64,000 nt of DNA. Origin: an uncultured Kiritimatiellota bacterium (GTDB lineage Bacteria; Verrucomicrobiota; Kiritimatiellia; RFP12; UBA1067). The notes under the pieces are model-generated. The model was given only the letters and a program-made list of their open reading frames with translations. It was not told the DNA's origin and did not search any database. Positions 10,602 to 49,800 of the stretch are shown here, piece after piece (position 1 is the first letter of the stretch; each line of letters begins with the position of its first letter). The DNA lies in NCBI GenBank assembly GCA_934635385.1, contig CAKTZI010000020.1, positions 1,820-65,819 of the forward strand, given 5' to 3'. Position numbers and translations under genes: made by a program.

Positions 10602-10613
10602 ATTTGGTATAAT
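10602..10613 (+). promoter_or_regulatory. Extended -10 promoter TTTGGTATAAT upstream of ogt
   Basis: gggaatttggtataatcagc read directly. Confidence 0.5.
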
Positions 10614-11193: not shown

Positions 11194-11277
11194 CGTATGC
11201 GGCTGATCGGGAACACGATCGTGTAGTTTTTTAAGGAGGCATATCGAGATGAATGTCTGTCTCGTGGCGCTTGGCTG

Positions 11278-15420: not shown

Positions 15421-15434
15421 GGGGTTGGAGTCTT

Positions 15435-15470
15435 CGGGAACACGGTCGTGTAGCTTTTTGGTATAATTCG
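15435..15470 (+). promoter_or_regulatory. Promoter-operator CGGGAACACGGTCGTGTAGCTTTTTGGTATAATTCG (palindrome ACACGGTCGTGT over the -35 region; extended -10)
   Basis: Near-identical copy at 30328-30360 upstream of another PIN gene. Remnant (ACACGATCGTGT) at 11208-11226. Confidence 0.55.
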
Positions 15471-15487
15471 CGGCAAGGAGGTGAACG

Positions 15488-15727
15488 GTGAGTTACACAA
15501 TGATGATGGAACCTGACTTGAAGCGCAAAGCAGAAGCGTATGCCGCTCGGCAGGGAATGACGCTGGATGGGATCATCCGAGCCTATCTCGTCACGATCGT
15601 CGCGCATGAGACGCGCGGTGAACGCCGTGCGCGGGAACTTCATGAATTCATCGCCTCTCAGCCTAAGCTTGAAGGGACACCGTACAAGTTCAGCCGTCAG
15701 GATGCCTATGACGAGGAGATCGGCTGA
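15488..15727 (+). CDS. Putative RHH/Arc-like antitoxin (79 aa), GTG start after AAGGAGG
   Basis: LKRKAEAYAARQGMTLDGIIRAYLV ribbon-helix-helix-like N-terminus. Stop overlaps the start of the downstream PIN gene (ATGA). Confidence 0.5.
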   Translation: MSYTMMMEPDLKRKAEAYAARQGMTLDGIIRAYLVTIVAHETRGERRARELHEFIASQPKLEGTPYKFSRQDAYDEEIG

Positions 15728-16140
15728 TGCGGTCTTTCCTCGACACGAATGTTCTTGTCTACCTTGCAGATGCGCGTGATGCGCGGAAGCAAGGCATTGC
15801 CGAAGAGTTTGTGGAGGGCGCGATCGCCGAGCGGCTTGATTGCCGAATCTCAGTTCAGACCCTGACGGAATTCACGAATGTCTGCATCAAGAAATTGAAG
15901 TTGGACAGAAGCGTCATTTCCGTGTTCTTGGATTATTTCGATGACTTGCAGATGGTCAGAACCGATTCTGAGACCGTAAAAAATGCGTTGGAAATCAAGG
16001 CTCGGTACAATATCCAGTTTTATGATGCCATGATGATTTCCGCAGCACTTGCGTCTGGTTGCGAAGAGATTCTGTCCGAAGATCTGAATGACGGACAGAA
16101 CTACGGCGGAGTCGTCGCACACAATCCATTTAAGCGGTAA
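15727..16140 (+). CDS. vapC: VapC-family PIN-domain toxin
   Basis: MRSFLDTNVLVYL ... TEFTNV ... FYDAMMISAA. Confidence 0.8.
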   Translation: MRSFLDTNVLVYLADARDARKQGIAEEFVEGAIAERLDCRISVQTLTEFTNVCIKKLKLDRSVISVFLDYFDDLQMVRTDSETVKNALEIKARYNIQFYDAMMISAALASGCEEILSEDLNDGQNYGGVVAHNPFKR

Positions 16141-20588: not shown

Positions 20589-20829
20589 GCTTGTCAGGGG
20601 CCCAGTTTGTCAAATAGGGAAGACACTCTGTAGGTAGCTTGGCGGCCAACACGCTTGCGCGCGCATTCGCCCACGAGCCGGAAAATATGGTATACTACAA
20701 GTGCTTTTGAAGGAGTAGGCTAGGCAAACTGCCGAAACTGGAGAAGGCAAGACCATAGTTCGAGAACTGATTCGGGCGTCAAGCGACTACGTGTGCGCCG
20801 ACTTCCGCGTCCACCCTCGGATACCTTAA

Positions 20830-20990
20830 ATCAATTTGCAACTGCAAAGCGATCGCCTACCGAAATGTGAGAAGTTTCAAAACGGACGATACTGTGCAGG
20901 AAGCGCAATTGCGCTTCCTCTCATTGTGTTTCCGTTTGGGCATTTCTCACAGCCTCGGTAGAAGCACAAAGGGAGGGTTTCTTTTTTGTG
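20830..20990 (+). promoter_or_regulatory. Conserved structured 5' leader (copy A), a candidate cis-regulatory RNA with a terminator/antiterminator, upstream of the zinc-ribbon operon at 21089
   Basis: Homologous to 31172-31332. Shared TCAATTTGCAACTGCAAAGCGATCG box, a covarying hairpin GGAAGCGCAatTGCGCTTCC versus GGGAACGCAtaTGCGTTTCCC, and a terminal GAAGC...GTTTC + T6 hairpin. Confidence 0.5.
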
Positions 20991-21088
20991 TGATTGCCGA
21001 GCGGTGAAAGCAACGCGCCGCATCTTTCGGTCTGCATGGATGCGCCCGTAAAGCAACGCAGACAAGAGAGAAAGGTGAAAGGTAGGCC

Positions 21089-22594
21089 ATGTTTTGCACA
21101 CAGTGCGGTCAGGAAATCAACGACAAGGCGGTCATCTGCGTCAAATGCGGATGCGCCGTCACGCCACAGGCTGCGCAGCCGATTGCGCCAGAAGTCAAGT
21201 CTGCGGACGAACTCCCTGAGAAATGGACATGGGCGTTGGCCACCGTCCCAATTATCGTCTCGTGGATACTGGCAGGGCTGTTGCCGACGGTGTTCGAAAA
21301 TAGCGACCCATCCCGGCTCGCGCACATCACGACCGCCGCGACCATCCTCCTGAATCTCATTTTCCTGTCGCTTGACGTGAAAGTCCTGAAGAAAGCGGAA
21401 CGTGACATCGAGAAGGCCTTATGGCTTGGGTTCATCTTGATCCCGGTCTACCTTTTCGTACGCGCGGCGAAGTATTCAAAGAAATACGCTCCGGCCATTG
21501 TCTGGTGCGTCCTTTTCGTGCTTGACTTGGTTGCCACAACAGATGAATTGGAAGAAAAGCAAGATTCCGCTGAGCAGAACGCAACCTATAGTCTTGAGAG
21601 CAGGGGCGTTCCTGTTGCGCAGGATACGGCGAAAACAGGCGAGATTGAAGACGTGGCTGAAACGGTCAACGAAATCACGGAGAATATCTCGCAAGAGGTT
21701 GTCCCTCCGTCGGACGTTCAAGAAGTTGTCAGTCTGCGGGATTTCGCGGTTCGTGAACCCTATCGAAGCCGTCGCATTGGTGATTTGCGAAAAGGGGCCG
21801 CCTACAAGTATGAGGCCCATCCCGGATACATGGAATCATACAAGGTGTTGCAGGTGGTGTCTGACGGATGCATTCTCGCGATCATGGATGTCGGCGATGA
21901 TCCTGACTTCTCCGAATACACACAAGCCGTTATTTTGGTCAAGACGAAGCGTGAATATGTTGATGACCAGTACCTTGAATCTGGCGTTTACGCCTATCGC
22001 GGAACTTACACATACGAAACTACGTTAGGCGGGTCGAAGACCGTTCCCCAGTTTCAAGAGGTTCGGGTAGATTCTTCACGGGAACGGAAGCCTGCGTCCA
22101 CTTCGAAAATCAATCTGAAAACCATCGTCGCCCGTGAAGACGGAAATGTGGTCGGTATGTTTGGCGTACGGCTTGGTGTTAAGGCGAAGGCCCTGTCGGA
22201 GAAAGACGTTGGGGCGATTGGCAAGCCAATTGTCGTTCCTGAATCTCAGGGTGGCGGCCTTTTGTACAGGTACGACTATCGGGGGAATCGTGGCATTTGG
22301 GACATGTTTACATTCCAAACGGAAGGCGAAGACAGCCCGGTGTTTTGCGTGGAAGCGGTTAAGTCTTATGATAACGAGGCGATGGCGTTGTCCGGCGCGC
22401 AGAGTCTTCTTGTGTTGCTGAAGAACCGTTATGGCGTTTCCATGACGAAGAATCAAATGGCAACGAAAGTCCATGCCTGGTTTCAGATCCTTAAGCAACC
22501 GCACAACACCGTCCTCGCGACTGTAAAGGTGGCCGGAAAAGAAGGAACCTACCTTTTGTCCTATTCAATGATGGCGCTTCCCCCAGACACGTGA
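21089..22594 (+). CDS. N-terminal zinc-ribbon multi-TM membrane protein with a C-terminal globular domain (501 aa)
   Basis: MFCTQCGQEINDKAVICVKCG, then 4 TM segments. The C-terminal segment YLESGVYAYRGTYTYETT is shared with the lipoprotein at 27293. Confidence 0.6.
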   Translation: MFCTQCGQEINDKAVICVKCGCAVTPQAAQPIAPEVKSADELPEKWTWALATVPIIVSWILAGLLPTVFENSDPSRLAHITTAATILLNLIFLSLDVKVLKKAERDIEKALWLGFILIPVYLFVRAAKYSKKYAPAIVWCVLFVLDLVATTDELEEKQDSAEQNATYSLESRGVPVAQDTAKTGEIEDVAETVNEITENISQEVVPPSDVQEVVSLRDFAVREPYRSRRIGDLRKGAAYKYEAHPGYMESYKVLQVVSDGCILAIMDVGDDPDFSEYTQAVILVKTKREYVDDQYLESGVYAYRGTYTYETTLGGSKTVPQFQEVRVDSSRERKPASTSKINLKTIVAREDGNVVGMFGVRLGVKAKALSEKDVGAIGKPIVVPESQGGGLLYRYDYRGNRGIWDMFTFQTEGEDSPVFCVEAVKSYDNEAMALSGAQSLLVLLKNRYGVSMTKNQMATKVHAWFQILKQPHNTVLATVKVAGKEGTYLLSYSMMALPPDT

Positions 22595-22645
22595 AGCCAC
22601 GGATGATGCGAATCAGCACGAGAAACAAGAGCATCAGAAAACCAC

Positions 22646-22990
22646 TTGATTATGTTCTGCCGACACTGCGGACACGAAATCAATAGCAAAGCGGTCCTCT
22701 GCCTGAATTGCGGATGCGCCGTCGATTCTGCCGAGCCGATGCCGGAGGCGTCAGCCCAAGCCGCCGTTCGCCCGAACGAATGGCTGGCGGCCGTCCTCCT
22801 GTGCATCTTTCTCGGCTCTCTCGGAATCCACCGCTTCTACACGAAGAACACGGCGGTCGGTGCCGCGCAGCTCGTCCTTGGGCTGCTCACCTGTGGCGTC
22901 GTCAGCTGGATTTGGTCGTTCATCGACATGATCATGCTTTTGACCGGCAGCTACACAACGGGTGACGGTCGTTTCCTGACAAAAAACTAA
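22646..22990 (+). CDS. Zinc-ribbon + TM2-domain protein
   Basis: MFCRHCGHEINSKAVLCLNCG, then WLAAVLLCIFLGSLGIHRFYTKNTAVGAAQLVLGLLTCG (TM2 signature). Confidence 0.7.
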   Translation: MIMFCRHCGHEINSKAVLCLNCGCAVDSAEPMPEASAQAAVRPNEWLAAVLLCIFLGSLGIHRFYTKNTAVGAAQLVLGLLTCGVVSWIWSFIDMIMLLTGSYTTGDGRFLTKN

Positions 22991-23015
22991 ACACAACGAA
23001 AGAGAGGTAGGTAGT

Positions 23016-23375
23016 ATGTTCTGCAAGGAATGCGGAGCCCAAATCAATGACAAGGCGGCGATATGCCCTAAATGCGGTGTGCCGGTCGCGTCGGCCAAGC
23101 CGGCCTTGGCGGAAAAGGAGAAGGTCTCGAACCACATGATCGAGGCGATCATCGTGACGCTTTTCTGCTGTCTGCCGTTCGGCATCGTTTCAATCGTCTA
23201 TGCGTCGAAGGTCAACGCGCGGCTTGCGATAGGGGATGTCGAGGGCGCCAAGGCGGCTTCACGTTTGGCCAATCGGTGGCTGCTGACGGGCGCGGGCCTT
23301 GCCGGTGCCCTTGGCCTTCTGTGGGCGGCCTTGTGCGCGCTGGGCGTGGTGAGCGAGGAAATGCTGGCGCTGTAA
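23016..23375 (+). CDS. Zinc-ribbon + CD225/dispanin-like membrane protein
   Basis: MFCKECGAQINDKAAICPKCG, then TLFCCLPFGIVSIVYASKVN (CD225-like). Confidence 0.65.
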   Translation: MFCKECGAQINDKAAICPKCGVPVASAKPALAEKEKVSNHMIEAIIVTLFCCLPFGIVSIVYASKVNARLAIGDVEGAKAASRLANRWLLTGAGLAGALGLLWAALCALGVVSEEMLAL

Positions 23376-23399
23376 AAGGAGCGCACCAAGAGGGATCTG

Positions 23400-23813
23400 A
23401 TGTCGTTTGTCCCTGCGGATCGAACGTTGTGCGACACGTCGGGCGATTCTGCTCGGCGTGCCGCGCGGCGTCCAAGATGGTGGGCGTTCATGATTGCTGC
23501 GTTCGCGCTTGCCGCCCTCGCGTTCCTCTACTTTTGCAATCCCTCCGACGTGCCGTATTTCCCACGCTGTCCGTTTCTGGTGCTGACAGGTTACCAGTGT
23601 CCGGGATGCGGGACGCTGCGCGGTATCCACAGTCTGCTGCATTTCAGATTTCGGGACGCTTGGGGCTACAATCCGTTTCTGGTCGTCTCGATTCCCCTGA
23701 TCGCGGCACTTGTGCTGTCCCCTCGCTTTCGCAGAAGCCCGCATGTGTCCAAAACGGGTCTCACGGCAATTCTCGCCTATTGGCTGTTGCGTAATATGGG
23801 GCTTGGGAGATAG
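23400..23813 (+). CDS. DUF2752-like membrane protein (CPxCG motif)
   Basis: FPRCPFLVLTGYQCPGCGTLRG plus TM helices. Confidence 0.5.
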   Translation: MSFVPADRTLCDTSGDSARRAARRPRWWAFMIAAFALAALAFLYFCNPSDVPYFPRCPFLVLTGYQCPGCGTLRGIHSLLHFRFRDAWGYNPFLVVSIPLIAALVLSPRFRRSPHVSKTGLTAILAYWLLRNMGLGR

Positions 23814-29813: not shown

Positions 29814-30327
29814 GTGCCACGCTTCGCACAGAGGTATATGTAAGACCAGTGAAACTTGTCCGACTTTCGTGTCCGTGCCACGTGCGGCATTTGTACCCGT
29901 CGGCGCGGCGCAGCCGCCTCGCGCGCGACAGCCCGGAAACCAGGGCTTCAGCATGAAAAGATGATTTTTTCTCTGTGCGACAGCAGTCGCATTGGGCACG
30001 TCGTCCCGCCAGCTCGCGCTCGCGCGTCGGAACGGGAAGCTGCTCGCTCGGTCTCGTCGTTCGGGTTTGCGCTTCTCGCCGAAGACAACCGACCGACTTC
30101 AGCCTGCCGTGCCTCGGCGAGACCACGGGCTGCGGGCGAGACCTCTCCGACGCCAGCAAACCCTCGCTCCTCACTCGCGCCACTTCCCGCCCCTCCGCGC
30201 GCGACACCGCACCTTCGATCTTGTCACGCGGAGCCGCAGAGTCTTGGCTACATTGAGAAGCGCAGATCGTGGCCAAAAGTGCGACGAACTGCCAAGCAGT
30301 AAGCGAATTGTTTCTCCGCGCGGAGGC

Positions 30328-30360
30328 TCGGGAACACGGTCGTGTAGTTTTGTGGTATAA
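30328..30360 (+). promoter_or_regulatory. Second copy of the promoter-operator CGGGAACACGGTCGTGTAGTTTTGTGGTATAAT
   Basis: Near-identical to 15435-15470. Confidence 0.55.
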
Positions 30361-30427
30361 TTCGCGTGTTCCTTGGGCGGCAGCGATTCTGCCCTTGGAT
30401 GTCGTAATCAATTATGTCGTGCTTCGC

Positions 30428-30862
30428 ATGAGAGTCTATCTCGACAACTGCTGTTACAATCGTCCGTTTGATCCACAAACGGATTTGCGCATTTGTCTCG
30501 AAACGATGGCGAAGATGCGTGTGCAAGCCCTGATGAAAAGCGGTGCTGTTGAATATGCTTGGAGCGATGCCCTTGATTACGAACTCGGTCAAAGCCCGAA
30601 CTATCAAGAGCCTGACATGATTGCGCCGTGGAGAGATGGTGCCGTTGTTGATGTCGCGACAGACGATGAATTGATTGACCGCGCCGAAAAAATCCAGTCA
30701 TACGGCATCAAGGCTATGGATGCCATGCACATTGCAAGTGCAGAATCTGCTGGATGTGACTGGTTCCTGACGACCGACAAGGGAATTCTTAAGAAATTGA
30801 GAATGCTTGGCGAAATGCGTATCGCCAATCCGATTGATTTTGTCACGGAGGATGCAAGATGA
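30428..30862 (+). CDS. PIN-domain nuclease (VapC-like, MRVYLDNCCYNRPFD family)
   Basis: N-terminal MRVYLDNCCYNRPFDPQTD and C-terminal acidic residues DAMHIASAE. True start is internal to the ORF-track model. Confidence 0.7.
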   Translation: MRVYLDNCCYNRPFDPQTDLRICLETMAKMRVQALMKSGAVEYAWSDALDYELGQSPNYQEPDMIAPWRDGAVVDVATDDELIDRAEKIQSYGIKAMDAMHIASAESAGCDWFLTTDKGILKKLRMLGEMRIANPIDFVTEDAR

Positions 30863-31077
30863 CGATGATTCCCGATAATGAACTTCGGACATTGTGCTTT
30901 AATGTCCTTGTTGATCGCGTTGGCTATCTTGACACGGAGCGGTTTGTGGCTATGATAAGCCGTTCAACGGAAGACTACACGTCATGGCATCAACGCCATT
31001 TCGGCAACGGGGAATCGGCAAGGGCCCTTGGCGAGAAAATCAAGGCATTCGCCGCAACAAAGCGGCAATGTGTCTGA
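30859..31077 (+). CDS. Hypothetical 72-aa protein translationally coupled (ATGA) to the PIN gene; possible cognate antitoxin or regulator
   Basis: 4-nt overlap with the PIN gene stop. Confidence 0.35.
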   Translation: MTMIPDNELRTLCFNVLVDRVGYLDTERFVAMISRSTEDYTSWHQRHFGNGESARALGEKIKAFAATKRQCV

Positions 31078-31171
31078 CGCAATCTGATTTAAATTTTCAA
31101 AACTGCACCCCGAAAGGAACCCAAAATAACAGTTTAAGCGAGAGGCGGAAGTAACGCACCGCCAAACCAAG

Positions 31172-31332
31172 TCAATTTGCAACTGCAAAGCGATCGTCTC
31201 TGGAAACGTAGGAACTTTCGAGACTGACGACACTTAGCAGGGAACGCATATGCGTTTCCCTCCTTTTGTGTTTCAGTCAGGGCAATTCCTACGGCCTCCA
31301 GAGAAACATGAAAAGAGGGTTTCTTTTTGTGT
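31172..31332 (+). promoter_or_regulatory. Conserved structured 5' leader (copy B) upstream of the SPFH/zinc-ribbon operon
   Basis: See copy A. Terminator-like GAAAC...GTTTC + T5. Confidence 0.5.
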
Positions 31333-31423
31333 CCGATTGCCACGCGGCGAACCGGCACGGAAAGGAGGATGGCCCGTTCTCGATCCGTGAGACAAGTCAC
31401 AGGGCAGAAACAAGGAAAATTCG

Positions 31424-32578
31424 ATGGCACTGATCGAGACGTTGAAATGGGACGGCGCGCCAAACGTGTTCGCGTTCCGCTACCCCAATTGCGAGCTGAC
31501 GACCAAATCGCAGGTTGTCGTCTACGAATCGCAGGAGGCCGTGTTCGTCAAGGACGGCCAGTTCTTCGAGCCGCTGGGGCCCGGTCGCCATATCCTTGAC
31601 GCGAAGAACTTCCCCTTCCTCACGCAGCTGGTCACGGGCCTCGTGACGGGCGGCGAGTCGCCGTTCAGCGCCGAGGTGTGGTTCGTCAACAAGGCCATTC
31701 CGCTGGACATCAAGTGGGGCACGTCCGAGCCGATCCAGGTCGAGGACCCGAAGTACCACGTCATGATGCCCGTGCGGGCCTACGGGCAGTACGGGCTGCA
31801 GATCGTGGACACGCAGAGGTTTCTCGCGAAGCTTGTCGGGCGCGTCCCCGTCTTCGTGACGAAGACCCTGAGCGCCTACTTCAGGGGAATCGTCATCACG
31901 TCGGTCAAGGACCGCATCGCCACCTACTTGGTGAACGAGGCCGTCTCGGTGCTGCAGATGGGAAGCCGACTGACGGAGGTGTCGTCCTTCCTTCAGGACG
32001 AGCTGACGAAAGAGCTGCAGGACTACGGCGTCCGCGTGGCGTCCTTCAAGGTCAACTCCATCACGGCGGACGAGAGCGACCCCGCCGTGGCGCAGCTGAA
32101 GCGGGCGTTGGCCAAGAAAGCCGAGATGGAGATCGTCGGCTACACCTATCAGCAGGAGAAGTCGTTTGACGTGATGAGCCGGGCGGCGGGCAACGAAGGA
32201 GGCGGCGCCAGCGCGTCCGTCATGCAGACGGGCATGGGACTTGGACTGGGGATGGGGTTGGGCGCACCGCTTGGCGGCGCGGCGGCTGGCCTGGCGACGC
32301 ATCTCCAGCTGGACGGCGGCGAAAAGTCCGTCTGCGGCACATGCGGCGCAACGCTGCCGGCGGCGGCGCGCTTCTGCCCGAACTGCGGTACGGCGCGCGA
32401 GTCCCGCAAGGCAGAAGGCTGTCGGTGCGCGAGATGCGGGATCGAGTGGGCGAAGCCGTCGCGCTTCTGCCCCAACTGCGGACTGGAGATGACGCCCGAA
32501 AAGCGGACGTGCCCCGCGTGCCAGACGGAACTGCCTCCTTCGGCGAAGTTCTGTCCCAACTGCGGAAAGGAGGCGTGA
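31424..32578 (+). CDS. SPFH/band-7 domain protein with a Gly-rich linker and four C-terminal zinc ribbons
   Basis: N-terminal SPFH-like region (MALIETLKWDG..., ~250 aa). Linker MGLGLGMGLGAPLGGAAAGLA. Four CxxC-x10-17-CxxC ribbons (CGTCG...CPNCG, CARCG...CPNCG, CPACQ...CPNCG). Confidence 0.75.
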   Translation: MALIETLKWDGAPNVFAFRYPNCELTTKSQVVVYESQEAVFVKDGQFFEPLGPGRHILDAKNFPFLTQLVTGLVTGGESPFSAEVWFVNKAIPLDIKWGTSEPIQVEDPKYHVMMPVRAYGQYGLQIVDTQRFLAKLVGRVPVFVTKTLSAYFRGIVITSVKDRIATYLVNEAVSVLQMGSRLTEVSSFLQDELTKELQDYGVRVASFKVNSITADESDPAVAQLKRALAKKAEMEIVGYTYQQEKSFDVMSRAAGNEGGGASASVMQTGMGLGLGMGLGAPLGGAAAGLATHLQLDGGEKSVCGTCGATLPAAARFCPNCGTARESRKAEGCRCARCGIEWAKPSRFCPNCGLEMTPEKRTCPACQTELPPSAKFCPNCGKEA

Positions 32579-32580
32579 GC

Positions 32581-33033
32581 ATGTTCTACAAACGGAGCAT
32601 CTGGGCGATCGTCGCCCTCGCGATGGCGCTTGCCGCCGCCACGTTGTTTGTGGTCAGGGAGGCCCCCTACTCACGGAACTTCTGGTTGGAGCTGACACTG
32701 CTGATGGTCGCGCTCGCGGCCGCCGGATGGCAGGGGGCGTGTTCCGTCGACCATCCGGGCTCGTCGCTGCCGTTTCCGCTGGCGAGTCTGCGTCTCACGC
32801 TGCGGTATGCCGTCTTCGTCCTGCTCATGGGCGTCCCCGTCCTCCTCGACATCAACATCCGGTTCAAGTACTATGCCCTGGCGCACGGCTTCGGACTGGG
32901 GCTTTGGCTGGCCGCGCTCATCGCCCTGCGGATGGGGACGCATGCGGTCGACGAGCAGGATGCATCAGACCGTCAGCGGACAAAGGCGCAGCGCGAACAT
33001 TCGATAGATTCATCACCAGAATATTGTAATTAA
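32581..33033 (+). CDS. Four-TM membrane protein, hypothetical
   Basis: Starts 3 nt after the SPFH gene stop. Hydrophobic helices. Confidence 0.45.
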   Translation: MFYKRSIWAIVALAMALAAATLFVVREAPYSRNFWLELTLLMVALAAAGWQGACSVDHPGSSLPFPLASLRLTLRYAVFVLLMGVPVLLDINIRFKYYALAHGFGLGLWLAALIALRMGTHAVDEQDASDRQRTKAQREHSIDSSPEYCN

Positions 33034-33077
33034 CTCCGATGATTATGGCTCTCGCGCGGCCTACGGCTCGGAGTTAA
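33029..33077. repeat. Hairpin repeat ttaactccgaTGATTATGGCTCTCGCGCGGCCTACGGCtcggagttaa
   Basis: Same family as 455-615 and 27757-27792. Confidence 0.55.
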
Positions 33078-34067: not shown

Positions 34068-34712
34068 ATGACTATGGACTTGCCCTCTTACACACGCGGA
34101 AAAACGACGTATTACGACACGGCGGGGCTCTCGATCAGTGAGAGTATGGCAGTTGCCTTTCAGGCCGGCTTAAAAGGGAAAGGCTTCGAAGTCTTTGATT
34201 CAACCCAGATGGACTGCCCGAAATGGGTAGAGCAGATGGTGCTGGCGCGGCGACATCGAGAGGCGAAAGCGAACGAGTTTGCCCGTGCAAGGCAAACGTC
34301 GCAGGAGGATCTCTTCAAGCCAAAGATGCTCAGGATTGATTCTGAGCCGTCGCCGCAACGAGAGGCCACAGCCCCTGCGACGCCGCCGTGGACATGCGAA
34401 TATTGCGGTAAATCGAATGACGCGCAAGAGTCCGCTTGCCGTGGATGCGGCGCGCCGAATCCGCACGGCGAAACGTCAGCCGTTGCACCGAAGAAGGTTG
34501 ACGTCTTCATGGATGCGGTGGTCTCGTCCGTCATCGCCGCCATCGGCTATGACGAGTACGCGAAGCGACTCGTCGTGCGCTTCAAGTCCGGCGCGGCCTA
34601 CGAGTACCTGAACATCCCGAAATCGCTTTACGCCGAACTGATGGCGTCCGAGGCGAAAGGCAAGTTCTATTCAGCGAACATTCGCGGCAAGTTCGACGGA
34701 CGAAAGCTCTAA
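34068..34712 (+). CDS. RanBP2-type zinc-ribbon + KTSC-domain protein
   Basis: WTCEYCGKSNDAQESACRGCGAP, and a C-terminal KTSC-like IGYDEYAKRLVVRFKSGAAYEYLNIPKSLYAELMASEAKGKFYSANIRGKF. Confidence 0.6.
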   Translation: MTMDLPSYTRGKTTYYDTAGLSISESMAVAFQAGLKGKGFEVFDSTQMDCPKWVEQMVLARRHREAKANEFARARQTSQEDLFKPKMLRIDSEPSPQREATAPATPPWTCEYCGKSNDAQESACRGCGAPNPHGETSAVAPKKVDVFMDAVVSSVIAAIGYDEYAKRLVVRFKSGAAYEYLNIPKSLYAELMASEAKGKFYSANIRGKFDGRKL

Positions 34713-34728
34713 TCCCAAAAGAAGCTTC

Positions 34729-40850: not shown

Positions 40851-43800
40851 CTATTTGCGCCTTTCCGCGCGGATTTTCTCAATCAGTTTTGCCTTGCCGC
40901 GCTCGATGTCGGAGAGCAATGAGGCATCGACTTCATGGCCCTCCTTCTCGTCCCTCATCGCCCTTGCCTCGTCCCTGCGGATCTGCGCAATGTCGGCGGC
41001 GATGTCCTCGCGCACGCCCTCGCGCATGAGCGGATTTTCGGCAACGATGCTGTCGAGCAGAAGCCTCCTGTTCTGTTCGTCGAGAAGCTCGTCTTTCTCG
41101 ATGGCGTCGTATTCTCTCTTGGAGTCCAGGAATCGATTGGAGAGAATGGCGTAATCGTCTTTGCGGTACGTCCCCTTGCCGATGCCGAACATCGTCAGCC
41201 CCGCGCCGAGGAATGCCGTAGCCCACGCACGGTCTTCAATGCCGTTCTCGTAGATGGAATGCCCCGCATCGCGGAGCGAGATCGGCGCAAACGACAGCAA
41301 CAGTTCGGCCGCGCCGTAGTCCTGCCCTGTGTAGTCCTTCCCGGACAGTGCGGAGAAAGCATTGCTCACGAGCGGCGTGAGACGGCCCTTTGCGAAATGG
41401 GCAACCTCTCCGAACATGTCGCGCACTTTGGCCTGTTTCCCAGTAGCAGTCTCGTATGCGCCCGTCACAAGTCGGTTGCCGAGGCGCAGAAACGCCACGG
41501 AGCCGCCCGTGAGGTCAAGCTGCGTGTGCCGTATGCGTGGTGCAACGAGCATTTGCAGCCGTTTCACGGGGCCGGCATGGGCGAATTCGTCCTTCTGGTC
41601 GTCGGTCGCGAACAATGCCGTGAGCAGAGAGCCAAGTAGAATCGCGCCAAGATTCGAGCGCACGAATTCGCCGAGCCCAATCCTCGACATTGTAAGACGT
41701 TCCTTGAACGTACCCGAACCGTCCTCTTCCGCACTTGCCGTCCACGAATGCCATACCTGATACCCGATGAGCCGCTTCAACTGCGAATCGACAAGGCCAG
41801 GAGCCCAGAACACTTTGCCAAGTATGCGCCGGTTGTCCTTTGAGAGCGTGCCGGAACCGTTCATGACGTTTATCATGTCGCAAAGCATCTTCTTCTGGAA
41901 TACGGTTGCCCCGCCGGGGAAGAGTTTCGGATCGTTGACGATCGTGGAATAGAGGCTTGCGGACACGGCGTTGATGTATGTCGCATAGAGCCGGTCAGAG
42001 TTCTCTATGGACGTGCCGTAGAACGGAATATCGGTAAAGCGGAGCGCCTTGCCGCCAATCGTAAACGGCTTGTCGATTGCGTCAAACAACTCCACGCGCT
42101 CGCCGCGACTGGTCGAATCGGAAACCTTCTTCCAACGAAGCCAGCCGTTGTCCACGGCCTCCTTCACGGAAGCGTCGGAGAGAAGATCGAGTTCTATGTT
42201 CTCCGCGTTGATCCTGCTCTTGAACGCCGAAATCGTCTTTGCGAAGTTCGCCGCAACGATTTTCGGATGCGCCATGAGGATCGTACCCGTCTGGTTGCCT
42301 ACCTGCGTGAAGTCGAGCGAAGCCGTAGCCATCTTCCACACGCCGTCCACGAAACGGTAGGCATCGCCCATGAAACGGACGAACTTGGGCTTGCGGGCAT
42401 CCGCAGCTTCACGCCGCAAGTCGGCAAGCTTGCGGTGGGCCCTGTTCATCTGCTCGGCCATCGCCTCGTACCGCTTCTGCATTTCCGGCGGCATGGGCGG
42501 CTGCGGCTTCTTCTGCGGGCGCAGGTCGCCACGGACAATGCGTTCGGCAAGACGCGCAATCGCCTTTTCGCGATTTGCCATCTTGCGAGCGTTGTAGGCG
42601 GAAAGCTCTTCCGGCGTCAGGCCGAACTCGTACTTCGCCTTTTTGAGTTCGCGAATCTGGTTGCGCACCTCGGACAGCCTTTCTCGCAGAGCGTCAAGCG
42701 TGGGCGACTCGGCCCTTGGACGCCTTGCCTTCTTCGAGAAGTCGCCGGAACGCGCGCGGTCGAGATCGGCCAGCGCGTGTTCAAGTTCCCTGCCGAGAAG
42801 CCGTTCCGCAAGCTTCACGCGCTGCGCATCGGTCATCCCATGTTCAGTCCTGAAAAGCTCGTCATAGGTCTTCTGGAGTTCGTCCTTCCGCTTTCTCAGT
42901 TCGCGCAGTTCGATGTCCTCCATCACCGTGCGCTCTCGCCCGGGGATCTTCTCCCCCGTCTCGATTGCACGTTCAAGGTCTGCGATGCGGTTCTTCACGC
43001 GCGTCTTTGCGGATTCGAGGACGCCCTTCAGCCTCCGTGCGTCGCGTCCCGCATCCGGGACCTCCTTCTTGCGCTCCTGTACCTGCTTCTGCAGGTTTCG
43101 CGTCGTGTCGGACGGCTCGTCGCGCACCATGCCCGTAAGGGGCGGCATGGTGTTATTCTCGTCCATCCAGTCCATCTGCCGCTTGAGGCGAGACTGGGAA
43201 CGCAGGTCGTTCATGAGGCGCTGCGCCTCGTAGCGGGATTGCCGGAAGTTGTGGCCGAATCCCGTGAGCGCGTCGCGTACCTGATTCTCGTCCACGCCGT
43301 CCATGAACGGCGAGATGTCCTCCACGATTGCCTTGATGCACTCGTCTTCCGTGATGTCGGGATTCTCGAAGCAGTGGTATTCTCCGATTGCGCGGAGCCA
43401 CTTGCCCCAAGCCGGGTACTGCTGATCGGAAAGTCCGACAAGTGTGCCGCCGACCTCCGCAGAGCCGACCTCGATCTGGGCAAGCGCGTCGTTGTAGTTC
43501 CGCATGACGCGCTTCACCTCGTCACCGGGATTGCGCTCCGCCACCTTGCGAATCCTGTCGCCTCGTTTGATCTGCTCGACAATCTTCTCCGCCTGTGCCT
43601 TCAAACGTGCGGTGGCGAGATCCCTCCCCTCTTCGTCAAGCGTGGCAAATCCGTTGGCAATCTCCCGAATCTTCGCGTCCATTTCAGGCGCGATCTTGTC
43701 GGCACCGCCGAGGATTGCGGCCACCTGTCCCGAAATGCCGGCATACGAGAAGTCCGTCTGGTCGATGAGTCCACGGTTCGAGCGCAGCCGACGGCCAGCC

Positions 43801-46800
43801 TCCGAAGAACTCCGCGTCAGCGCAAGCCCGGTCTCGTACATGAGCGACTTCGCCTGTGCGAGCTGGGACATGGCCTCGCCATATTCGCGCGCGACCTTCT
43901 TCTGATTCTCGCCAAAGCCAGCGTCACGTTCGTCTTGGGGAATCGCATTGAACGCATCAAGCGTCTCTTTGAGTCCGTTCACGACAGACTGCGCCGCGTT
44001 TACCGCCGCCTGGCGACGGCGGAACAGGACATTGAGCGCATTGTTCTCGTAATCCGCGATGTTGCGCGGGAACTTCGCCACCGCACGGGAGAGTTTCTCC
44101 ATGTAGGACGGATTCGACAAAAGGGCCTCTGCCTGTTCCCACGCCGTCTCGTCCGGCTTGCGGACATGCTTCGGCGGTTCCATCCCTGCAGCCTTTAGGG
44201 CGGTTGCAATCTCGTCGTTCGTCATGCCGTACACCTCGCGCATGACCTGCTCCGTCGGTGTCTTGTCCTCCGCTTCGGAGTATTTCTCCTCCGCTGGCGT
44301 AAGGTTCGGCGTGTCGAAGTCAACCTGTCCGACTGAAAGCGTATCGACGCTCGGATATTCGCCCTTGCTGTTCGGTTTCAGGTGCGGGCGCAAATCAGCG
44401 GTCTTCGTCGCGGCGTTCTTCGGGCGGGCAAAGTCCTCCGCGTCCATGAGCGGAATCAGTTCCCTGACGGTCGGCGCGGAAAAGCTCTTCGCGTCACTTT
44501 CACGACGTGCAACGTACTTCTGTCCGTTTCCGGACTTCGTGATGAGCCAGTTGCCGTATGCCGCCGCCTTGCGGTTCTCGACCGCCTGAATGACGAGTGG
44601 CGTGATGGCCCGCTCCAGTTCCGCTTGGCGTGTGCGCAGCTTGACGAGTTCATCGCGCATCCCCTCGTAATCCTTCTGCAACCTGTCGGCATCGGCGGAC
44701 ATCTTCTTCGCCTGCCTGTCCATGTCGGCCAGCGAGTTCTCGTAGGCTTTCGCAAAGTCGGGCGACACCGTCTCGAATATCTTGCCCTTGAACGCCGTCA
44801 TTGCAGCCTGGGAGAAGTCGGGAAGGAAGCCGGAGTAGTTTATCTCACGCGCAACACCGATCATGGGGACGGCGATGTTGAACTTCTCATCGCCCCACTT
44901 GTCGTAGGTCAACACAAGCTCAACGCCGTTGAAGTCGCCGAGGACGGTCTTGTCGTCGCGTCCGTAGCGGTCTTTCGTAAGTTGCTTCGCCATCTGGGCG
45001 GAGACATAATCCGCCATGTCCTTCACCTTCTCGATGGATCGGCCGTCCGGCGTGGAGAGGGCGAACGGCTTTCCCTCGTTCTTCTTGCGCCACTCCTTCA
45101 CGCCCTCCTGTTCCCTTGCGAATTCCTCGCGGCGACGCGCCAGAATTCGGCTGTTCGCTTCCGCCCTGTCCTTGTTTCTCCGTGCGGACGAGAGGACGGA
45201 TTCCGTGTTGAGTTCGAGCTTGTGGACGCGCTTCTTCACGTCGATGAGCTCCATGAGCGCCTTGTTTCCCGAAGCAAGGCCCATGAGCATGTCGCGATCC
45301 ATCGCGCTTTCGTCCATGTCAATCTCACGGACGGAATCGTCACCGTGCATCACCTGGTCGATGAGCTTTGATTTCACGCCGATCAGCTGGTGGTTCTTCG
45401 TCTCGTAGGAGCCGATGTTGGCGTTGCCCTTCGTGAGGTAGTAGAAAATCTGCCCTTCCTTGTAGGTGTTGCCGAAGCGGATGATTCGTCCGATTGCCTG
45501 TTCGTCTTCGGACGGCTTCCATCCCGGATGCAGAAGGTGTATCGCCGCAAGCCGTTCCTGCACATTCGTCCCCTCGCCCATCTTCGGGCGTGATCCGATG
45601 AGCACGCGGACTTCGCCACTCCTCACCTTCGCGAACAGGGCGCTCTTGTTCGCGTCCTTGTCGCCCTTTGACTTGTCGATGTCCTGTATGATGGCGATCT
45701 CGTCCCTCGGTATTCCAGCCGTCACAAGCAGGCTGCGGATTTCCTCGTTGAGGTTATACGCACCTCTCGCATAAGGCATATCCTGACCGCCCGTAATGTG
45801 TGCGGCTATGTACTCGTCCGTGCCACCACTGGCGCGATTGAAGATGTCCGTGAAGACAAGTTGCGCACCACGCTCCGCCACCGTCTCGTCGTACACCTTC
45901 TTGATTTCGGACACGGCGCGGATGATCTTGTTGCCTCCGTCCTCAAAACCAAGCAGCCGTGGCGTGAGGCAGGCGTTCTTCGCGATTCGTGTCAACGTCA
46001 GATACTTGTTGCGCTCCTCGCGGCTCGGTGGAGTTGCCGCCTCATGCGCCACCATTTCCATGATGCGCTCCTGTGCAGGCGACATATCCACGTCAATCAT
46101 GTGGTATTTCGGCTTTGGACGCGGAATGTCCAGCTGATCGGGGTTTACGATGTCCACGACGCTCCGAAGGAGTTTCATCAGTTCCGGGATGTTCACGAAC
46201 GCCGAAACCTTTTCCTTCTCCTTTACCGTCTTGCCGTCAAGCGAGAATTCGCTTTCCGTTGTAATGCGCCCGAACGCATCCACGAAATCGTCGAAGTGCT
46301 TCAGCCCCTGCTCTTCAAGTTTGTTGGGGGCAAGGTATTTCAGCATGACATACGCCTCGACTACGGGCGCGTTGGAGAGCGGCGTGCCCGTCGCGAACAC
46401 GACACCTCGGTCACCGCCGTGCAGGGACTGGACGTACTGCGTCTTCATCTCCATGTCAACCGCCCGCTGGCTGTCGCCCTGCGAGAGTCCACCCGTGCGC
46501 CCCTGCCGCGTGGTGATCGGCATTCCCTTGAAATTGTGCGCCTCGTCCACGAAGAGCTGGTCCACGCCCAGTTCCTCGAACGGCACGATCTGGCTGTCGT
46601 GGTTCTCCGCGTTCGCAAGCTGTTCAAGTTTCGCCTCCAGCCGTTCGAGTTTCTTCGTGGCCTGATCGACTGAAATCCTCTCCCCGGCTTCGCGCATCGC
46701 GGCGATTGCCTCGATGAGGTCTCTCCGCTGCGCCTCCATGAATTCCTTCTGATACTCGTCGGACATGGCGAGCTTCTTGGAGAACGTGGAATGCTTCACG

Positions 46801-49800
46801 ACGATTGCGTCCCAGTCCCCGTTCGCCACCTGGGCGAAGAACGCCCGGCGGTTTTCCGGCTTTACGTCGGCCTCAGCCATTTTCAGGATGTTCGCGTTCG
46901 GAAACGCCTCCACAAACTCGTTCGTGAACTGCTCCAGCATGTGGTTCGGAACCACGTACATCGGCTTCTTGAACAGTCCCAAATGCCGTCCGAGAACGCC
47001 GATGGACTGCATTTCAAGCGTCTTGCCAGCGCCTACACAATGCGCAAGGCAGAGCGAACTGCCGCCGAGAACGCCACGGGCGATCACGTCGGACTGGTAT
47101 TCGCGGCCCTTCTTCGGCTTCTTGGGGTCGCCGCCCTCGAAGAGCTTGCCCAGCGCCGCCTCGCTCATTCCTGCGGCGCGGAACGGGAGGATGTTGTTCG
47201 GCAACTTGATCTCCACCATGTCCGTCATGACCGCATTGTAGCGTTCGTACATCGGCTCCGCCCACCGCTCGCTTGCCTGGATGAACTGCGAGAACGCATG
47301 GTGCAGCTTCTCCGCCGCGAGCTTGTTCCCCTCGGTGCGCTTCTCGTTGAGATAGCGTTTCTTGTCGATGGGATCGGTCTCGTAGTGGTTCATCGAGCCG
47401 TGGTTCAGGACGCGGCTAACGAACTCCTGCGGCGACCAGCTCGTTTCGCCCCACGGGTCTTCGTTCATGATGCGCCCGAACTCGACATTCCACTGCCCCG
47501 TCACCTCGTTCCTGCCCAGCATGATGTGCATGGACTCGGAACCGAATGCGTCGCGCAGGAAATCCTTCATGCAGTCCGTATCGACCCATGTCGCGCCGAA
47601 CTTGATTTCCGCATCCTCCAGCCGCACCATCGGCGGCTGCACCTTTTCAAGCGCCTCAACGTTCGCGCGGTAGGATTCTTCGCCCGCCTCGACGGCGGCA
47701 CGCGCCGCCGCAAGCTTCGCGCGGACGCGCCCGGAGAGGTATTCCCACGACGGTTCGAGAAGCCCCGTCTGCGGATTCTCGAAAGCGTCGCCGCCCTCTT
47801 TCAGTTTTCTGACGGCTTCCTCGTCACCCACGCCCAGCAGTTCCGCGATTCGCGGCACGTTGATTGCGCCGGACTCCGAATAGGAGATTACGAGCGCGTC
47901 CTTCGGCGTGTCGGCCTTCGTCGCCCGCTGTCCGCGAGAGATGACGCGCTTCGTGAAGATGTCGGACTTCACCACTTTGGGCTTTCCGCTTTCGTCCTTC
48001 ACGATTCGCTCAAGGGCAAGCAGCCTGTTCCCGTCCGCCTTGTCGAGAAGCACGAACGGCGAAATCCACTTGTCGTGAAGTGTTCCGTTTGCCTTCACGA
48101 AGGTGTCGTAAGCCTCGTTCAGCTTCGCCTGAAGCGGGGCAAGATCGGTTTCCACGGAGTCATTGTCCGTCATCTGCGCATCGATCACGTCCCGCATGGC
48201 CTTCCGAAGCGAAAGCAGCCCGCCCATGATCCTGTCCGGGGTTCGCCCGCGCTTTTTGAGTTCCTTGGAGAGCGAACGGTCGTTCGGGAAGACAATCGGC
48301 TCCAGCATCTCGCCGCTCTTGATGAACGGCTTGCCGTCCTTCATCGTGACGCTGCCCTGTCGCAGTCCCTCTGCGTCGTAGACCGGCGTGTGGTCTTGGC
48401 GCTCCGCGACCGCCGCGCTCTTCAGGAGCGCGTCCTTGTCGATGCCGTCCAGCGCACGGCCGATGGCCTTGCCTATCTCAGACGACAGGTCGCCCGGCAG
48501 CACGTCGGGCATGGAGTACTTCAGAATCGGCCCGAACTGGCCGCTCGCAATCTCCATCGTGCCGACAACCTGCTCCGGGTGGTCTTGGAAGTAGCCGTTG
48601 TATGTCAGCGGCTTCTCGATCCGGCCTTTGCGGCGCACCCATTCTTCAGTCTTGCCGTATTCCACGCCCTTCTCAAACGCCGCGTTGTCGGGACGGCCCT
48701 GCACCTTCTGGACGATCACGAGGTCGCTTGCGACATCCGTTCCCGCGTTTTCGGAGAAGAACCCGTTGGGGAGGCGCACAGCACCGACAATCTGCCCACC
48801 GTGCTCCGTGAGGAACTGGCGGAGAATCGGGCTTGTCTTGTCGAGTGTGCCCGTCGATGTCAGGAACGCCATCACGCCGCCCGGCCGCAGCTTGGCAAGC
48901 GTCTTGGCGAAGAAGTAGTCGTGGATCTTGAACATCCTGGACGACAGCGAACGGTCGTTGATCGGTACGTCCGCATACGGCACGTTGTCGATCGCGAAGT
49001 CGAAGAACCCGTCGGGGAACTTCGTTTCCTCGAACCCGCCGATGTTCACGCGCTGGTTCGGGAAGAGGGCCTTGAGCATTTCGCCCGTCAGGACATCCTT
49101 CTCCACGAACTGCCAGCTGACCGGCTTCTCGTATTCGCCGGCCGCGCTCGCGAAGTTGCCCGTTCCGGCGGACGGGCCGAGGAACCGCCCGCCTTTCACG
49201 CCGAGGCGGCGAAGGTTCTCATGCAGCGCCCGGACGAAGTAGACTGGCGTGTAGAACGCCGTCGAGGCGGAAGCCTTTGCCGACTCGTATTCCTTGTCGT
49301 TGAGAAGCTGCCGAAGTTCCCTGTGAAGGCCGTACGCGCCCTGGCTGATTCCGTACCTGCGGAGAACGCCGGGTACGCGCTCCGGCTCGCCCGCACGTTC
49401 AAGGGCATATGCGCTTTCAAGCCCATACCCGAACATGTCCTCGCGCAATCCGCCCCATCCGACGAACTTGGCGAGCGTGGCCTGCTCTTCCGGGGTCGCC
49501 GCGTAGTCCCGCGCTTTCAGGTCGCGGATGAGCCTTATCGCGTCGAGATTGTTGCGGACGCGCTGTGCCGTCTTCTTTTCGAGGATCGCGTCCTCGACCG
49601 ATTTCGTCATGACGAAATCGCGGCGCGTGGGATTCGGCTTTGTCGCGTCTGCGGCCTTGGCGGCACGCTTCTTTACGTGCGATACTCCGCCCTGATTCCC
49701 ATCTCCTGCGCGATCTCGCCCAGTCTCGCGTTCGCCATCCTCGGATACCGAGCGATTTCCGACGGGGCCATTTCCTTCAGCAGACGCTCTGCCGGAGTCT

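Follow-up and report, generated by a model that had tools for sequence, protein, structure and literature searches.

We identified a widespread, sense-strand RNA element in the DNA of an uncultured Kiritimatiellota bacterium (GenBank assembly GCA_934635385.1, contig CAKTZI010000020.1, positions 1,820 to 65,819 of the forward strand); the whole analyzed stretch of 64,000 nucleotides (nt) is called the window below. The conserved core of the element was identified twice in the window, as copy A (20828-21004, + strand) and copy B (31169-31347, + strand, 179 nt), and in more than 100 further distinct copies from Kiritimatiellota- and Verrucomicrobiota-type metagenome-assembled genomes (MAGs) and metagenome contigs of gut and rumen. 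It sits ahead of a following gene, either as a 5' leader (upstream contexts of types I and III, described below) or as an intercistronic element (type II and copy B). The fold, strand, position, and non-coding status of the element are shown computationally. Because it is a structured, sense-strand element with a gene transcribed through it, we read it as a cis-acting regulatory RNA, and we consider it moderately probable that it serves as a leader or intercistronic RNA controlling the gene that follows.

A new family of structured RNA

We searched the window with covariance model R1, built from 21 distinct copies, which scored copy B at 191.9 bits (E 6.5e-41) and copy A at 189.5 bits and found no third core copy in the 64 kb. 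A repeat search paired 31169-31259 with 20828-20918 (78%) and 31259-31328 with 20917-20986 (74%), and the 24-mer CAATTTGCAACTGCAAAGCGATCG was exact in both copies and nowhere else in the window, with 0 occurrences expected from shuffled sequences. The repeats, the shared 24-mer, and the scores of about 190 bits each bear out the original prediction that the window holds two copies of one conserved leader. That prediction had placed copy B at 31172-31332, which lies inside the element and stops short of its end; pairwise alignment carries the homology between the copies from about 31169 to about 31347, where the core closes with the conserved CGAUUGCC..GCGG, ~15 nt beyond position 31332. The window copies are ~76% identical, with many of the differences compensatory, and the core of copy B is type I-like, its best matches being type I copies at ~80% identity.

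Both copies fold more stably than shuffled sequences (z of -6.6 for copy B and -6.4 for copy A). The reverse strand, folded alone, is as stable as the forward strand, and the covariance model gave the sense strand ~190 bits versus ~37 for the antisense (37.6 for the antisense of copy B). No tRNA or tmRNA was found. Against Rfam 15, the whole window gave 0 matches at gathering thresholds, and permissive filters (E up to 10) returned only chance-level matches for the two copies (E of at least 0.96). No description of the element was found in the literature searched; large collections of candidates without names, such as the one in PMC8040213, might include it unnamed. On these sequence comparisons, the element is a new family of structured RNA of ~180 nt, outside every Rfam 15 family.

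Relatives were collected by an exact scan for the 24-mer in one genome per species, which yielded 22 loci, and by a degenerate pattern without the 24-mer, which locally recovered 18 of 25 known copies with 0 false matches in 200 kb. The 22 scan loci belonged mostly to Kiritimatiellaeota, Verrucomicrobia, or Lentisphaeraceae MAGs from gut samples; some of the contigs were labelled as unrelated gut taxa, yet carried Kiritimatiellota-contig genes, and because of this match in gene content they are presumably mis-binned. Several assemblies carry 2 to 3 copies of the element. The degenerate pattern returned at least 120 loci from a metagenome collection, and among the matches listed about 85 were confirmed by R1 at 81-202 bits; R1 found one more divergent copy, in locus L012. 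The later counts (101 cores, 104 copies) draw on the genome-scan loci and the metagenome matches listed, and the 101 distinct cores form alignment A5, which was fitted to the model, so that the fit favors the model's own structure. An isolated match to core positions 1-47 (33.5 bits) was seen on the minus strand of locus L043, ~5.4 kb into the reverse-complemented locus; perhaps the copy was truncated there, or a 5' block stands alone.

We analyzed the fold across the 101 cores and found 97.4% of cells in standard pairs, compared with 41-59% when the 3' partners were slid by 1-3 columns, together with double compensatory changes at 35 of 49 pairs (793 cells). An independent MAFFT and RNAalifold run on the 21 sequences collected first recovered these helices, and 17 pairs in it were doubly compensated. 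In copy B coordinates (all on the + strand), the fold begins with the small hairpin P0 (31176-31189, UUUGC-AACU-GCAAA; helices 2-3, 95-98% paired). In most copies other than type I, a hairpin with a GNRA cap, NGCU-GCAA-AGCN, takes the place of P0 or overlaps with it and shows clean covariation (UGCU/AGCA in 29 and CGCU/AGCG in 22); type I-like copies, both window copies included, carry AACU/AGCG. One metagenome copy (L117:2834-3013) holds a GC-rich insertion of ~60 nt between P0 and P1, which is consistent with the variable-length insertions tolerated in structured RNA.

The long hairpin P2 (31197-31304, ~108 nt), comprising P2a to P2d and an apical hairpin at 31240-31260, is the best-paired part of the fold (helices 4-8, 98.5-100% paired); its internal loops (GAAA/GCC and UUUC/GGC) are conserved or invariant, and its P2a stem is hypervariable, with all four pair types found. 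P2 is followed by a purine-rich block resembling a Shine-Dalgarno (SD) sequence, ACAUGAAAAGAGGG (31306-31319), and, directly 3' of it, by the conserved U-tract UUUCUUUUU (31320-31328). A P3 hairpin formed of the purine block and the U-tract (helix 9) showed G·U-rich, one-sided variation and no double compensation, and was not relied on. The closing helix P1 joins GCGAUCG (31190-31196) to CGAUUGC (31334-31340), on the far side of the U-tract, and so encloses P2 and the purine/U-tract region; 90.7% of its cells were paired, compared with 14-60% when slid, and its changes were mostly one-sided. Because this pairing reaches 3' of the U-tract, the functional RNA continues past it.

The paired columns of P2 and P3 contained 529 G·U and 19 A·C combinations, and columns 103-162 formed G·U in 100 of 101 sequences. 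The G·U excess, together with the sense-strand model score, indicates that the functional molecule is RNA of the + strand, the sense strand of the flanking genes. The original prediction had taken the leader to be untranslated, and this holds: core lengths fall into all residues modulo 3 (27/34/40), most frames contain stops, and substitutions keep base pairs rather than codons. Mechanically called open reading frames (ORFs) do overlap the region (31266-31433 on the + strand and 31134-31463 on the - strand), but with such lengths, stops, and pair-preserving substitutions there is next to no probability that the core is a protein-coding sequence or a fragment of a pseudogene.

Placement of the core among genes and 5' domains

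A same-strand ORF follows in 99 of the 104 distinct copies, the other 5 being cut by contig ends within 175 nt, and the orientation relative to that ORF is the same in every evaluable copy. The median gap from core to start codon is 79 nt (at most 100 nt in 71 of 99 copies and at most 60 nt in 27). The gap is 76 nt in copy B, to the ATG at 31424, and 84 nt in copy A, to the ATG at 21089, in line with the same relative position originally predicted for the two. The promoter consensus was identified inside the gap in 1 of 99 copies; since this general signal is almost absent there, the downstream genes are taken to be transcribed through the core.

The genes on the two sides of the core differ in character. 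The 85 downstream proteins span 68 Pfam families, which confirms that the leader travels with different downstream genes; these include SHOCT (6), DUF805 (5), DUF7560 (5), several zinc-ribbon families, BspA-type LRR (4), FRG (4), Band_7_1 (3), a sulfatase-modifying enzyme, a DNA methylase, and a transposase. Lipoprotein or signal sequences are common among these proteins, and long surface or polysaccharide genes follow in some cases (MBOAT, glycosyltransferase [GT], giant lipoproteins). Zinc-ribbon and SPFH genes make up a minority of the downstream genes, and the specific link to zinc or other metals that had been suggested for the leader finds no support. On the upstream side, at least 27 of 55 genes encode toxins of toxin-antitoxin (TA) systems (PIN 12, HepT 7, DUF3990 6, AbiEii 2; we take DUF3990 to be a toxin), and further upstream genes encode nucleotidyltransferases, DUF4160, and GNAT proteins. 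This upstream linkage to TA toxins is at least as striking as the downstream linkage.

We considered that the element might act as DNA, either as a recombination site resembling the attC of integrons or as the end of a mobile cassette or of a miniature inverted-repeat transposable element (MITE) that spreads accessory genes beside TA modules. Like attC, it is an imperfect hairpin that keeps its structure as its sequence varies, beside TA modules and diverse accessory genes, and this explanation would lead one to expect a hairpin-forming repeat of this sort, which recurs at over 100 loci that are not related to one another, beside TA genes and genes of high variability in an accessory island. 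However, the G·U to A·C ratio of 529:19 falls on the gene-sense strand, whereas attC folds on the bottom strand, and the element lies 5' of the gene that it accompanies, with a promoter in its type I copies. Inspection of the stem base (GUC-NNNN-GAAA ... GCCUC-NNNN-GA) revealed no AAC/GTT pair and hence no RYYYAAC/GTTRRRY boxes (R''/R'), and no arrays were seen: each locus carries one copy, even in loci of 13-15 kb, and the window copies lie 10.3 kb apart. No integrase domain was found among the island ORFs scanned, a subset of the ORFs of the window. An integron attC was rejected on the folded strand, the boxes, and the arrays.

The other mobile forms fared no better, in keeping with the original prediction, which had set the leader apart from mobile-element ends. 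No copies were found in plasmid and phage collections or in IMG/VR, and all 21 short-pattern matches from viral and plasmid-type searches were rejected by the covariance model. No shared 3' boundary beyond orthology was found after the downstream genes, and the cassette model was rejected for want of a common sequence there; a transposase was adjacent in 1 of 85 downstream and 2 of 55 upstream genes. Copies that are ~76% identical with compensatory differences are the opposite of recent transposition, and a terminal repeat of MITE, repetitive extragenic palindromic (REP), or insertion sequence (IS) type was rejected on this identity, the single orientation, and the lack of a common 3' boundary. 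Taken with the points on attC, a DNA-level role is very unlikely. Two further candidates were rejected: a ToxI-like antitoxin RNA of a type III TA system, as the element is a single unit of ~180 nt downstream of toxin genes and not a series of tandem ~36-nt repeats, and a retron msr-msd, to which the closing helix and long hairpin are only superficially similar, with no reverse transcriptase family among the flanking-gene families listed (for downstream genes, the 25 most frequent of the 68).

Three kinds of 5' context were found ahead of the core. Type I, which includes copy A, all 22 genome-scan copies, and some metagenome loci, has an extended -10 promoter, TGnTATAAT, whose distance upstream is constant at ~135 nt, and a 5' domain of ~125 nt that is itself structured and whose helix GUUCGGG:CCCYCGG covaries at 86/149 and 87/148 (RNAalifold). 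In copy A, the promoter TGGTATACT lies at 20688-20696 (+), and promoter and domain together span 20688-20827 (+), a part with no counterpart in copy B; the 5' half of copy A was searched elsewhere in the window, in case it had been displaced by, for example, insertion of the PIN genes, and was found only at copy A. Type II, which covers most metagenome copies, lacks a promoter and shows a conserved stretch directly after the stop codon of the preceding gene (CAAUCUCAAAUCG..AAACUG..AAUGAAAGGAA..CAGUnAAACGG..AUAGGCGGG-loop-CCCGCC, sometimes with extra GC hairpins). Type III is a small group with a promoter at -65 and a short hairpin. In locus L142, a type II domain stands directly behind a TGCTATAAT promoter, an arrangement showing that this domain can also begin a transcript.

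Copy B lies behind a pair of overlapping genes, encoding a PIN-domain protein (30428-30862, +) and a 72-aa protein (30859-31077, +), and ahead of a gene for an SPFH protein with C-terminal zinc ribbons (Band_7_1, PF13421, 1.5e-39; 31424-32578, +). Its description as a copy of the copy A leader applies to the core and not to the 5' part, as it has neither the promoter nor the 5' domain of copy A. Right after the stop of the 72-aa gene, a diverged type II domain was identified instead (31078-31168, +), with the purine stretch GAAAGGAA (31112-31122) and a GC hairpin (31144-31163). A profile of the type II domain from other loci made a single match in the window, at 31112-31180 (E 0.0075), and an nhmmer search found locus L054.

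The pattern TGGTATAMT has 13 matches in the window against 0.04 expected (for example at 10605, 13432, 15459, 17448, 20688, 25472, 26617, and 30353), and this extended -10 box clearly serves the organism as its general promoter signal, marking transcription-unit starts across the island. The match nearest upstream of copy B in the consensus scan, TGGTATAAT at 30353-30361 (+), stands ahead of the PIN pair, and no consensus promoter was found between 30362 and 31424, the gap from the 72-aa gene to the SPFH gene included. Having the core only, between the PIN pair and the SPFH gene, with its nearest promoter at 30353-30361, copy B is probably intercistronic. A promoter-proximal repeat, TCGGGAACACGGTCGTGTAG..TGGTATAAT, was also observed at 11199-11230, 15426-15472, and 30320-30366; the copies at 15426 and 30320 lie upstream of PIN genes (15727-16140 and 30428-30862), and the repeat is a candidate for a promoter or operator common to TA genes.

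Of 46 distinct type II domains, 37 contain a mini-ORF, AUG-AAA-GGA...stop (MKGxxxxQ*-like, 5-9 codons), whose length varies without leaving the frame (for example in L060, L066, L093, L129, and L142); its homologous place in the window is 31100-31135. The AUG is missing in seven type II domains, that of copy B among them. The mini-ORF may encode a leader peptide that ribosomes would translate on re-initiating past the stop codon of the toxin gene. Each of the three 5' domain types exposes a purine-rich stretch able to pair with the U-tract, and in the minimum free energy fold of full-length copy B, GAAAGGAACCC (31112-31122) pairs with GGGUUUCUUUU (31317-31327) and encloses the core. As both partners are invariant, the pairing of GAAAGGAA with the U-tract lies beyond a covariation test.

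The 3' side of the leader is variable as well. In copy B, the linker from core to start codon (31348-31423, +) contains GGAAAGGAGGAUGGCCCGUUC and ACAGGGCA, a shared sequence seen directly in L006, L010, L011, and L017, and a ribosome-binding site (RBS), AAGGAAAA, at 31412-31419. The sub-module GACACGGAAAGGAGAAUGGCCCGUUCGAC ... ACAGGGCA between core and start codon recurs in a subset of copies, and copy A and L012 share another, GCAUCUUUCGGUCUGCAnnGAUGC; on this pattern, both ends of the leader appear to be made up of exchangeable parts. An upstream ORF in the 3' linker (GGAGGAUGG...) was rejected on inspection, with its SD-AUG spacing too short and its frame not conserved.

An 11-bp pairing and a proposed mode of action

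We identified an 11-bp pairing between a CCUCUCUU-type stretch and the GAGAGG-type block that adjoins the U-tract (consensus CCUCUCUUYGU in the 3' arm of P2 with ACRAAGAGAGG just 3' of P2). In copy B, the 5' partner is the pyrimidine, anti-SD-like strand CCCUCCUUUUGU (31258-31269, +), which lies high in the 3' arm of P2 and in its internal loop, and the 3' partner is the purine block at 31306-31319. The pairing was 97.0% paired on the set ascertained with the 24-mer, compared with 49-72% when slid, and 98.4% on the 101 sequences, compared with at most 66%; pair 157/202 covaries (CG 51, UG 28, UA 18, and 4 other combinations that do not pair). The central 6 bp draw on internal-loop nucleotides that P2 leaves free, which would allow the pairing to form alongside P2, as a pseudoknot; the outer pairs compete with a 3-bp helix and two P2d pairs at the top of P2. 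An 11-bp helix that competes with the top of P2 near the U-tract could be a switch, or equally a static pseudoknot. In locus L019, the purine block is itself the RBS of the downstream gene (GAGAGG-UUUCUUU-AUG), which starts 7 nt after it. The anti-SD/SD-like pairing, its competition with the top of P2, the adjacent U-tract, and the purine block as RBS in L019 together give the most specific mechanistic lead that the sequences suggest.

Under the reading that we favor, cis control of the following gene, the element would be transcribed within the mRNA, on the sense strand and immediately before an accessory gene, on which it would act. Forming or releasing the 11-bp pairing would gate read-through or translation into that gene, and whether the pairing forms would depend on a bound factor or on ribosomes arriving from the upstream cistron or the mini-ORF. 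Copy B would be transcribed from the promoter of the PIN operon and would set how much expression of the SPFH operon follows. As for the original description of the leader as a cis-regulatory module, the single orientation, the place near the start codon, the non-coding sequence, and the lack of a mobile signature stand as observed, and the regulation itself, cis action and gating alike, is what we infer, with less confidence in the exact mechanism than in cis regulation.

Several points weigh against this reading. Neither a canonical GC-rich terminator hairpin nor a conserved pocket of the ligand-binding type was identified, and the single terminator-like call of a terminator scan was the apical hairpin of P2, which was rejected as a terminator. 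The 11-bp pairing is built of low-complexity tracts that are partly fixed by the metagenome search pattern, for which reason its covariation support, mainly from one pair, is moderate. Geometrically, most of P2 would have to melt for the helix to form as a nested alternative, and for a pseudoknot P2 would have to bend back on itself at the large internal loop that is conserved in it. The strong upstream link to TA toxins is left unexplained by a plain leader model.

A cis element that does not switch is a possible though clearly less probable account; it would be a processing or stabilizing site (for example one cut by RNase E or RNase III), an insulator (guarding against translational coupling or Rho), or a processive antitermination element of the put or EAR kind, through which RNA polymerase would read on into the accessory gene. 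P2 is long and nearly continuous, and the element lies between operon parts in type II copies; a processing site would separate the downstream mRNA from the TA transcript and leave a protective structure at its 5' end; P1 spans the U-tract, which makes read-through RNA the conserved form, and the long surface and polysaccharide genes downstream of some copies would suit antitermination. Yet a simple processing or stability hairpin needs no invariant loops, capped P0, P1, or additional 11-bp pairing. Like the put sites of HK022 and the EAR of Bacillus, the element is a cis-acting structured RNA near the start of a transcription unit, in some cases before surface or polysaccharide genes; unlike them in sequence and structure, with no Rfam match even at E up to 10, it is larger and also precedes single short genes, and antitermination would here be hypothetical.

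The core might instead belong to an independent, trans-acting small RNA that ends at the U-tract, made from its own promoter in type I copies or derived from the 3' untranslated region of the TA mRNA in type II, with the downstream genes as bystanders. The strong promoter of type I copies, the multiple copies per genome, and the terminator-like succession of the 11-bp helix and UUUCUUUUU fit such an RNA. The helix beside the U-tract is not a compact GC-rich hairpin, however, and conservation and the pairing of P1 run on 3' of the tract. Every evaluable copy has a co-oriented ORF close behind it, which in L019 begins 7 nt after the purine block, and this leaves neither room nor signal for separate promoters. 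On these grounds, a small RNA is disfavored and appears improbable.

The placement behind toxins also allows a bolder version of cis control, in which the core is a portable RNA adaptor that couples TA modules to accessory, envelope, or defense-like effector genes. Events in the TA operon would gate the downstream gene through the core RNA, and TA activation would switch on a neighboring effector; candidate events are ribosomes that end at the toxin stop codon and re-initiate on the MKG mini-ORF, and cleavage by the RNase toxins of the PIN and HEPN families. We regard this coupling as speculative and rather unlikely.

Neighboring genes and relation to known systems

Beyond the SPFH gene downstream of copy B lie genes of 150, 308, and about 210 aa, and the order PIN, 72-aa, SPFH, 150-aa, 308-aa, 210-aa is identical in two other assemblies (L164 and L165), so that a comparison for strain polymorphism at the SPFH locus showed no difference. 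An AbiEii gene precedes copy A, and the genes after it (21089-23813, +) encode a zinc-ribbon protein of 501 aa, zinc-ribbon-TM2 and zinc-ribbon-CD225 proteins, and a DUF2752 protein. Three consecutive genes there share a zinc-ribbon coding start of ~24 codons (MFCxxCGxxIN.KAxxCxxCG; 21089-21160, 22652-22723, and 23016-23087), a module fused to differing membrane domains in the 501-aa, TM2, and CD225 proteins. Both copies lie in an accessory region of lower GC content (10.6-36 kb) that also holds another PIN gene, a RhuM-Fic protein, a STAND-type ATPase, and methyltransferases.

Further, the segment 27755-27858 joins a copy of the stretch just before the 308-aa zinc-ribbon gene (compare 33029-33065) directly to a copy, 95% identical, of the last 18 codons of the KTSC gene (compare 34656-34719), which looks like the remnant of a duplicated tail of the copy B operon with ~1.6 kb deleted. 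Elsewhere in the window, a single ORF of 5249 aa was observed outside the accessory island (40851-56600, -), and a repeat with a 9-nt period (GTCCT.TGC-type) lies inside a high-GC coding region at 2392-2775, where it probably encodes a repetitive protein segment.

Surveys by the Breaker laboratory have described orphan cis-regulatory motifs named after their genes, and in riboswitches of the cyclic di-GMP type one leader precedes many unrelated genes. The element resembles these motifs and leaders in its covarying fold in the 5' untranslated region, its orientation along the gene and closeness to the start codon, and its several copies per genome before differing genes, and it resembles riboswitch and attenuator leaders in its potentially mutually exclusive pairings, which involve SD-like and anti-SD-like tracts and a U-tract. 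Riboswitches usually have a conserved aptamer and a variable expression platform, whereas here the 3' core is conserved and the 5' domains vary among three types, and the 68 downstream families show no gene association of the ligand type. In contrast to leader motifs, around half of the copies stand between cistrons, with a TA toxin gene immediately before them. RNA components of TA systems, such as ToxI of type III and the antisense RNAs of type I, are likewise physically linked to TA loci, but the element is a single copy downstream of type II or type IV protein toxins that have protein antitoxins of their own, and it also occurs without a TA gene, as in type I copies. The unusual combination is thus of three features: a conserved 3' core with interchangeable 5' domains, a very broad range of downstream genes, and recurrent placement behind TA toxins.

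In gut and rumen, Kiritimatiellota and related bacteria are abundant, but their genetics is almost unstudied. The reuse of one leader before dozens of unrelated envelope, surface, and defense-like genes points to shared post-initiation control of the accessory genome in these organisms, and its placement behind PIN, HepT, DUF3990, and AbiEii genes raises the testable question of whether TA modules are wired to their neighbors. The core is compact and modular and comes in more than 100 natural variants, which suits it to structural work and makes it a possible expression part for these bacteria. If the coupling to TA modules were true, accessory genes would be tied to TA systems by a regulatory link of a new kind, and the core would represent a new large RNA class specific to bacteria of the Planctomycetes-Verrucomicrobia-Chlamydiae (PVC) group.

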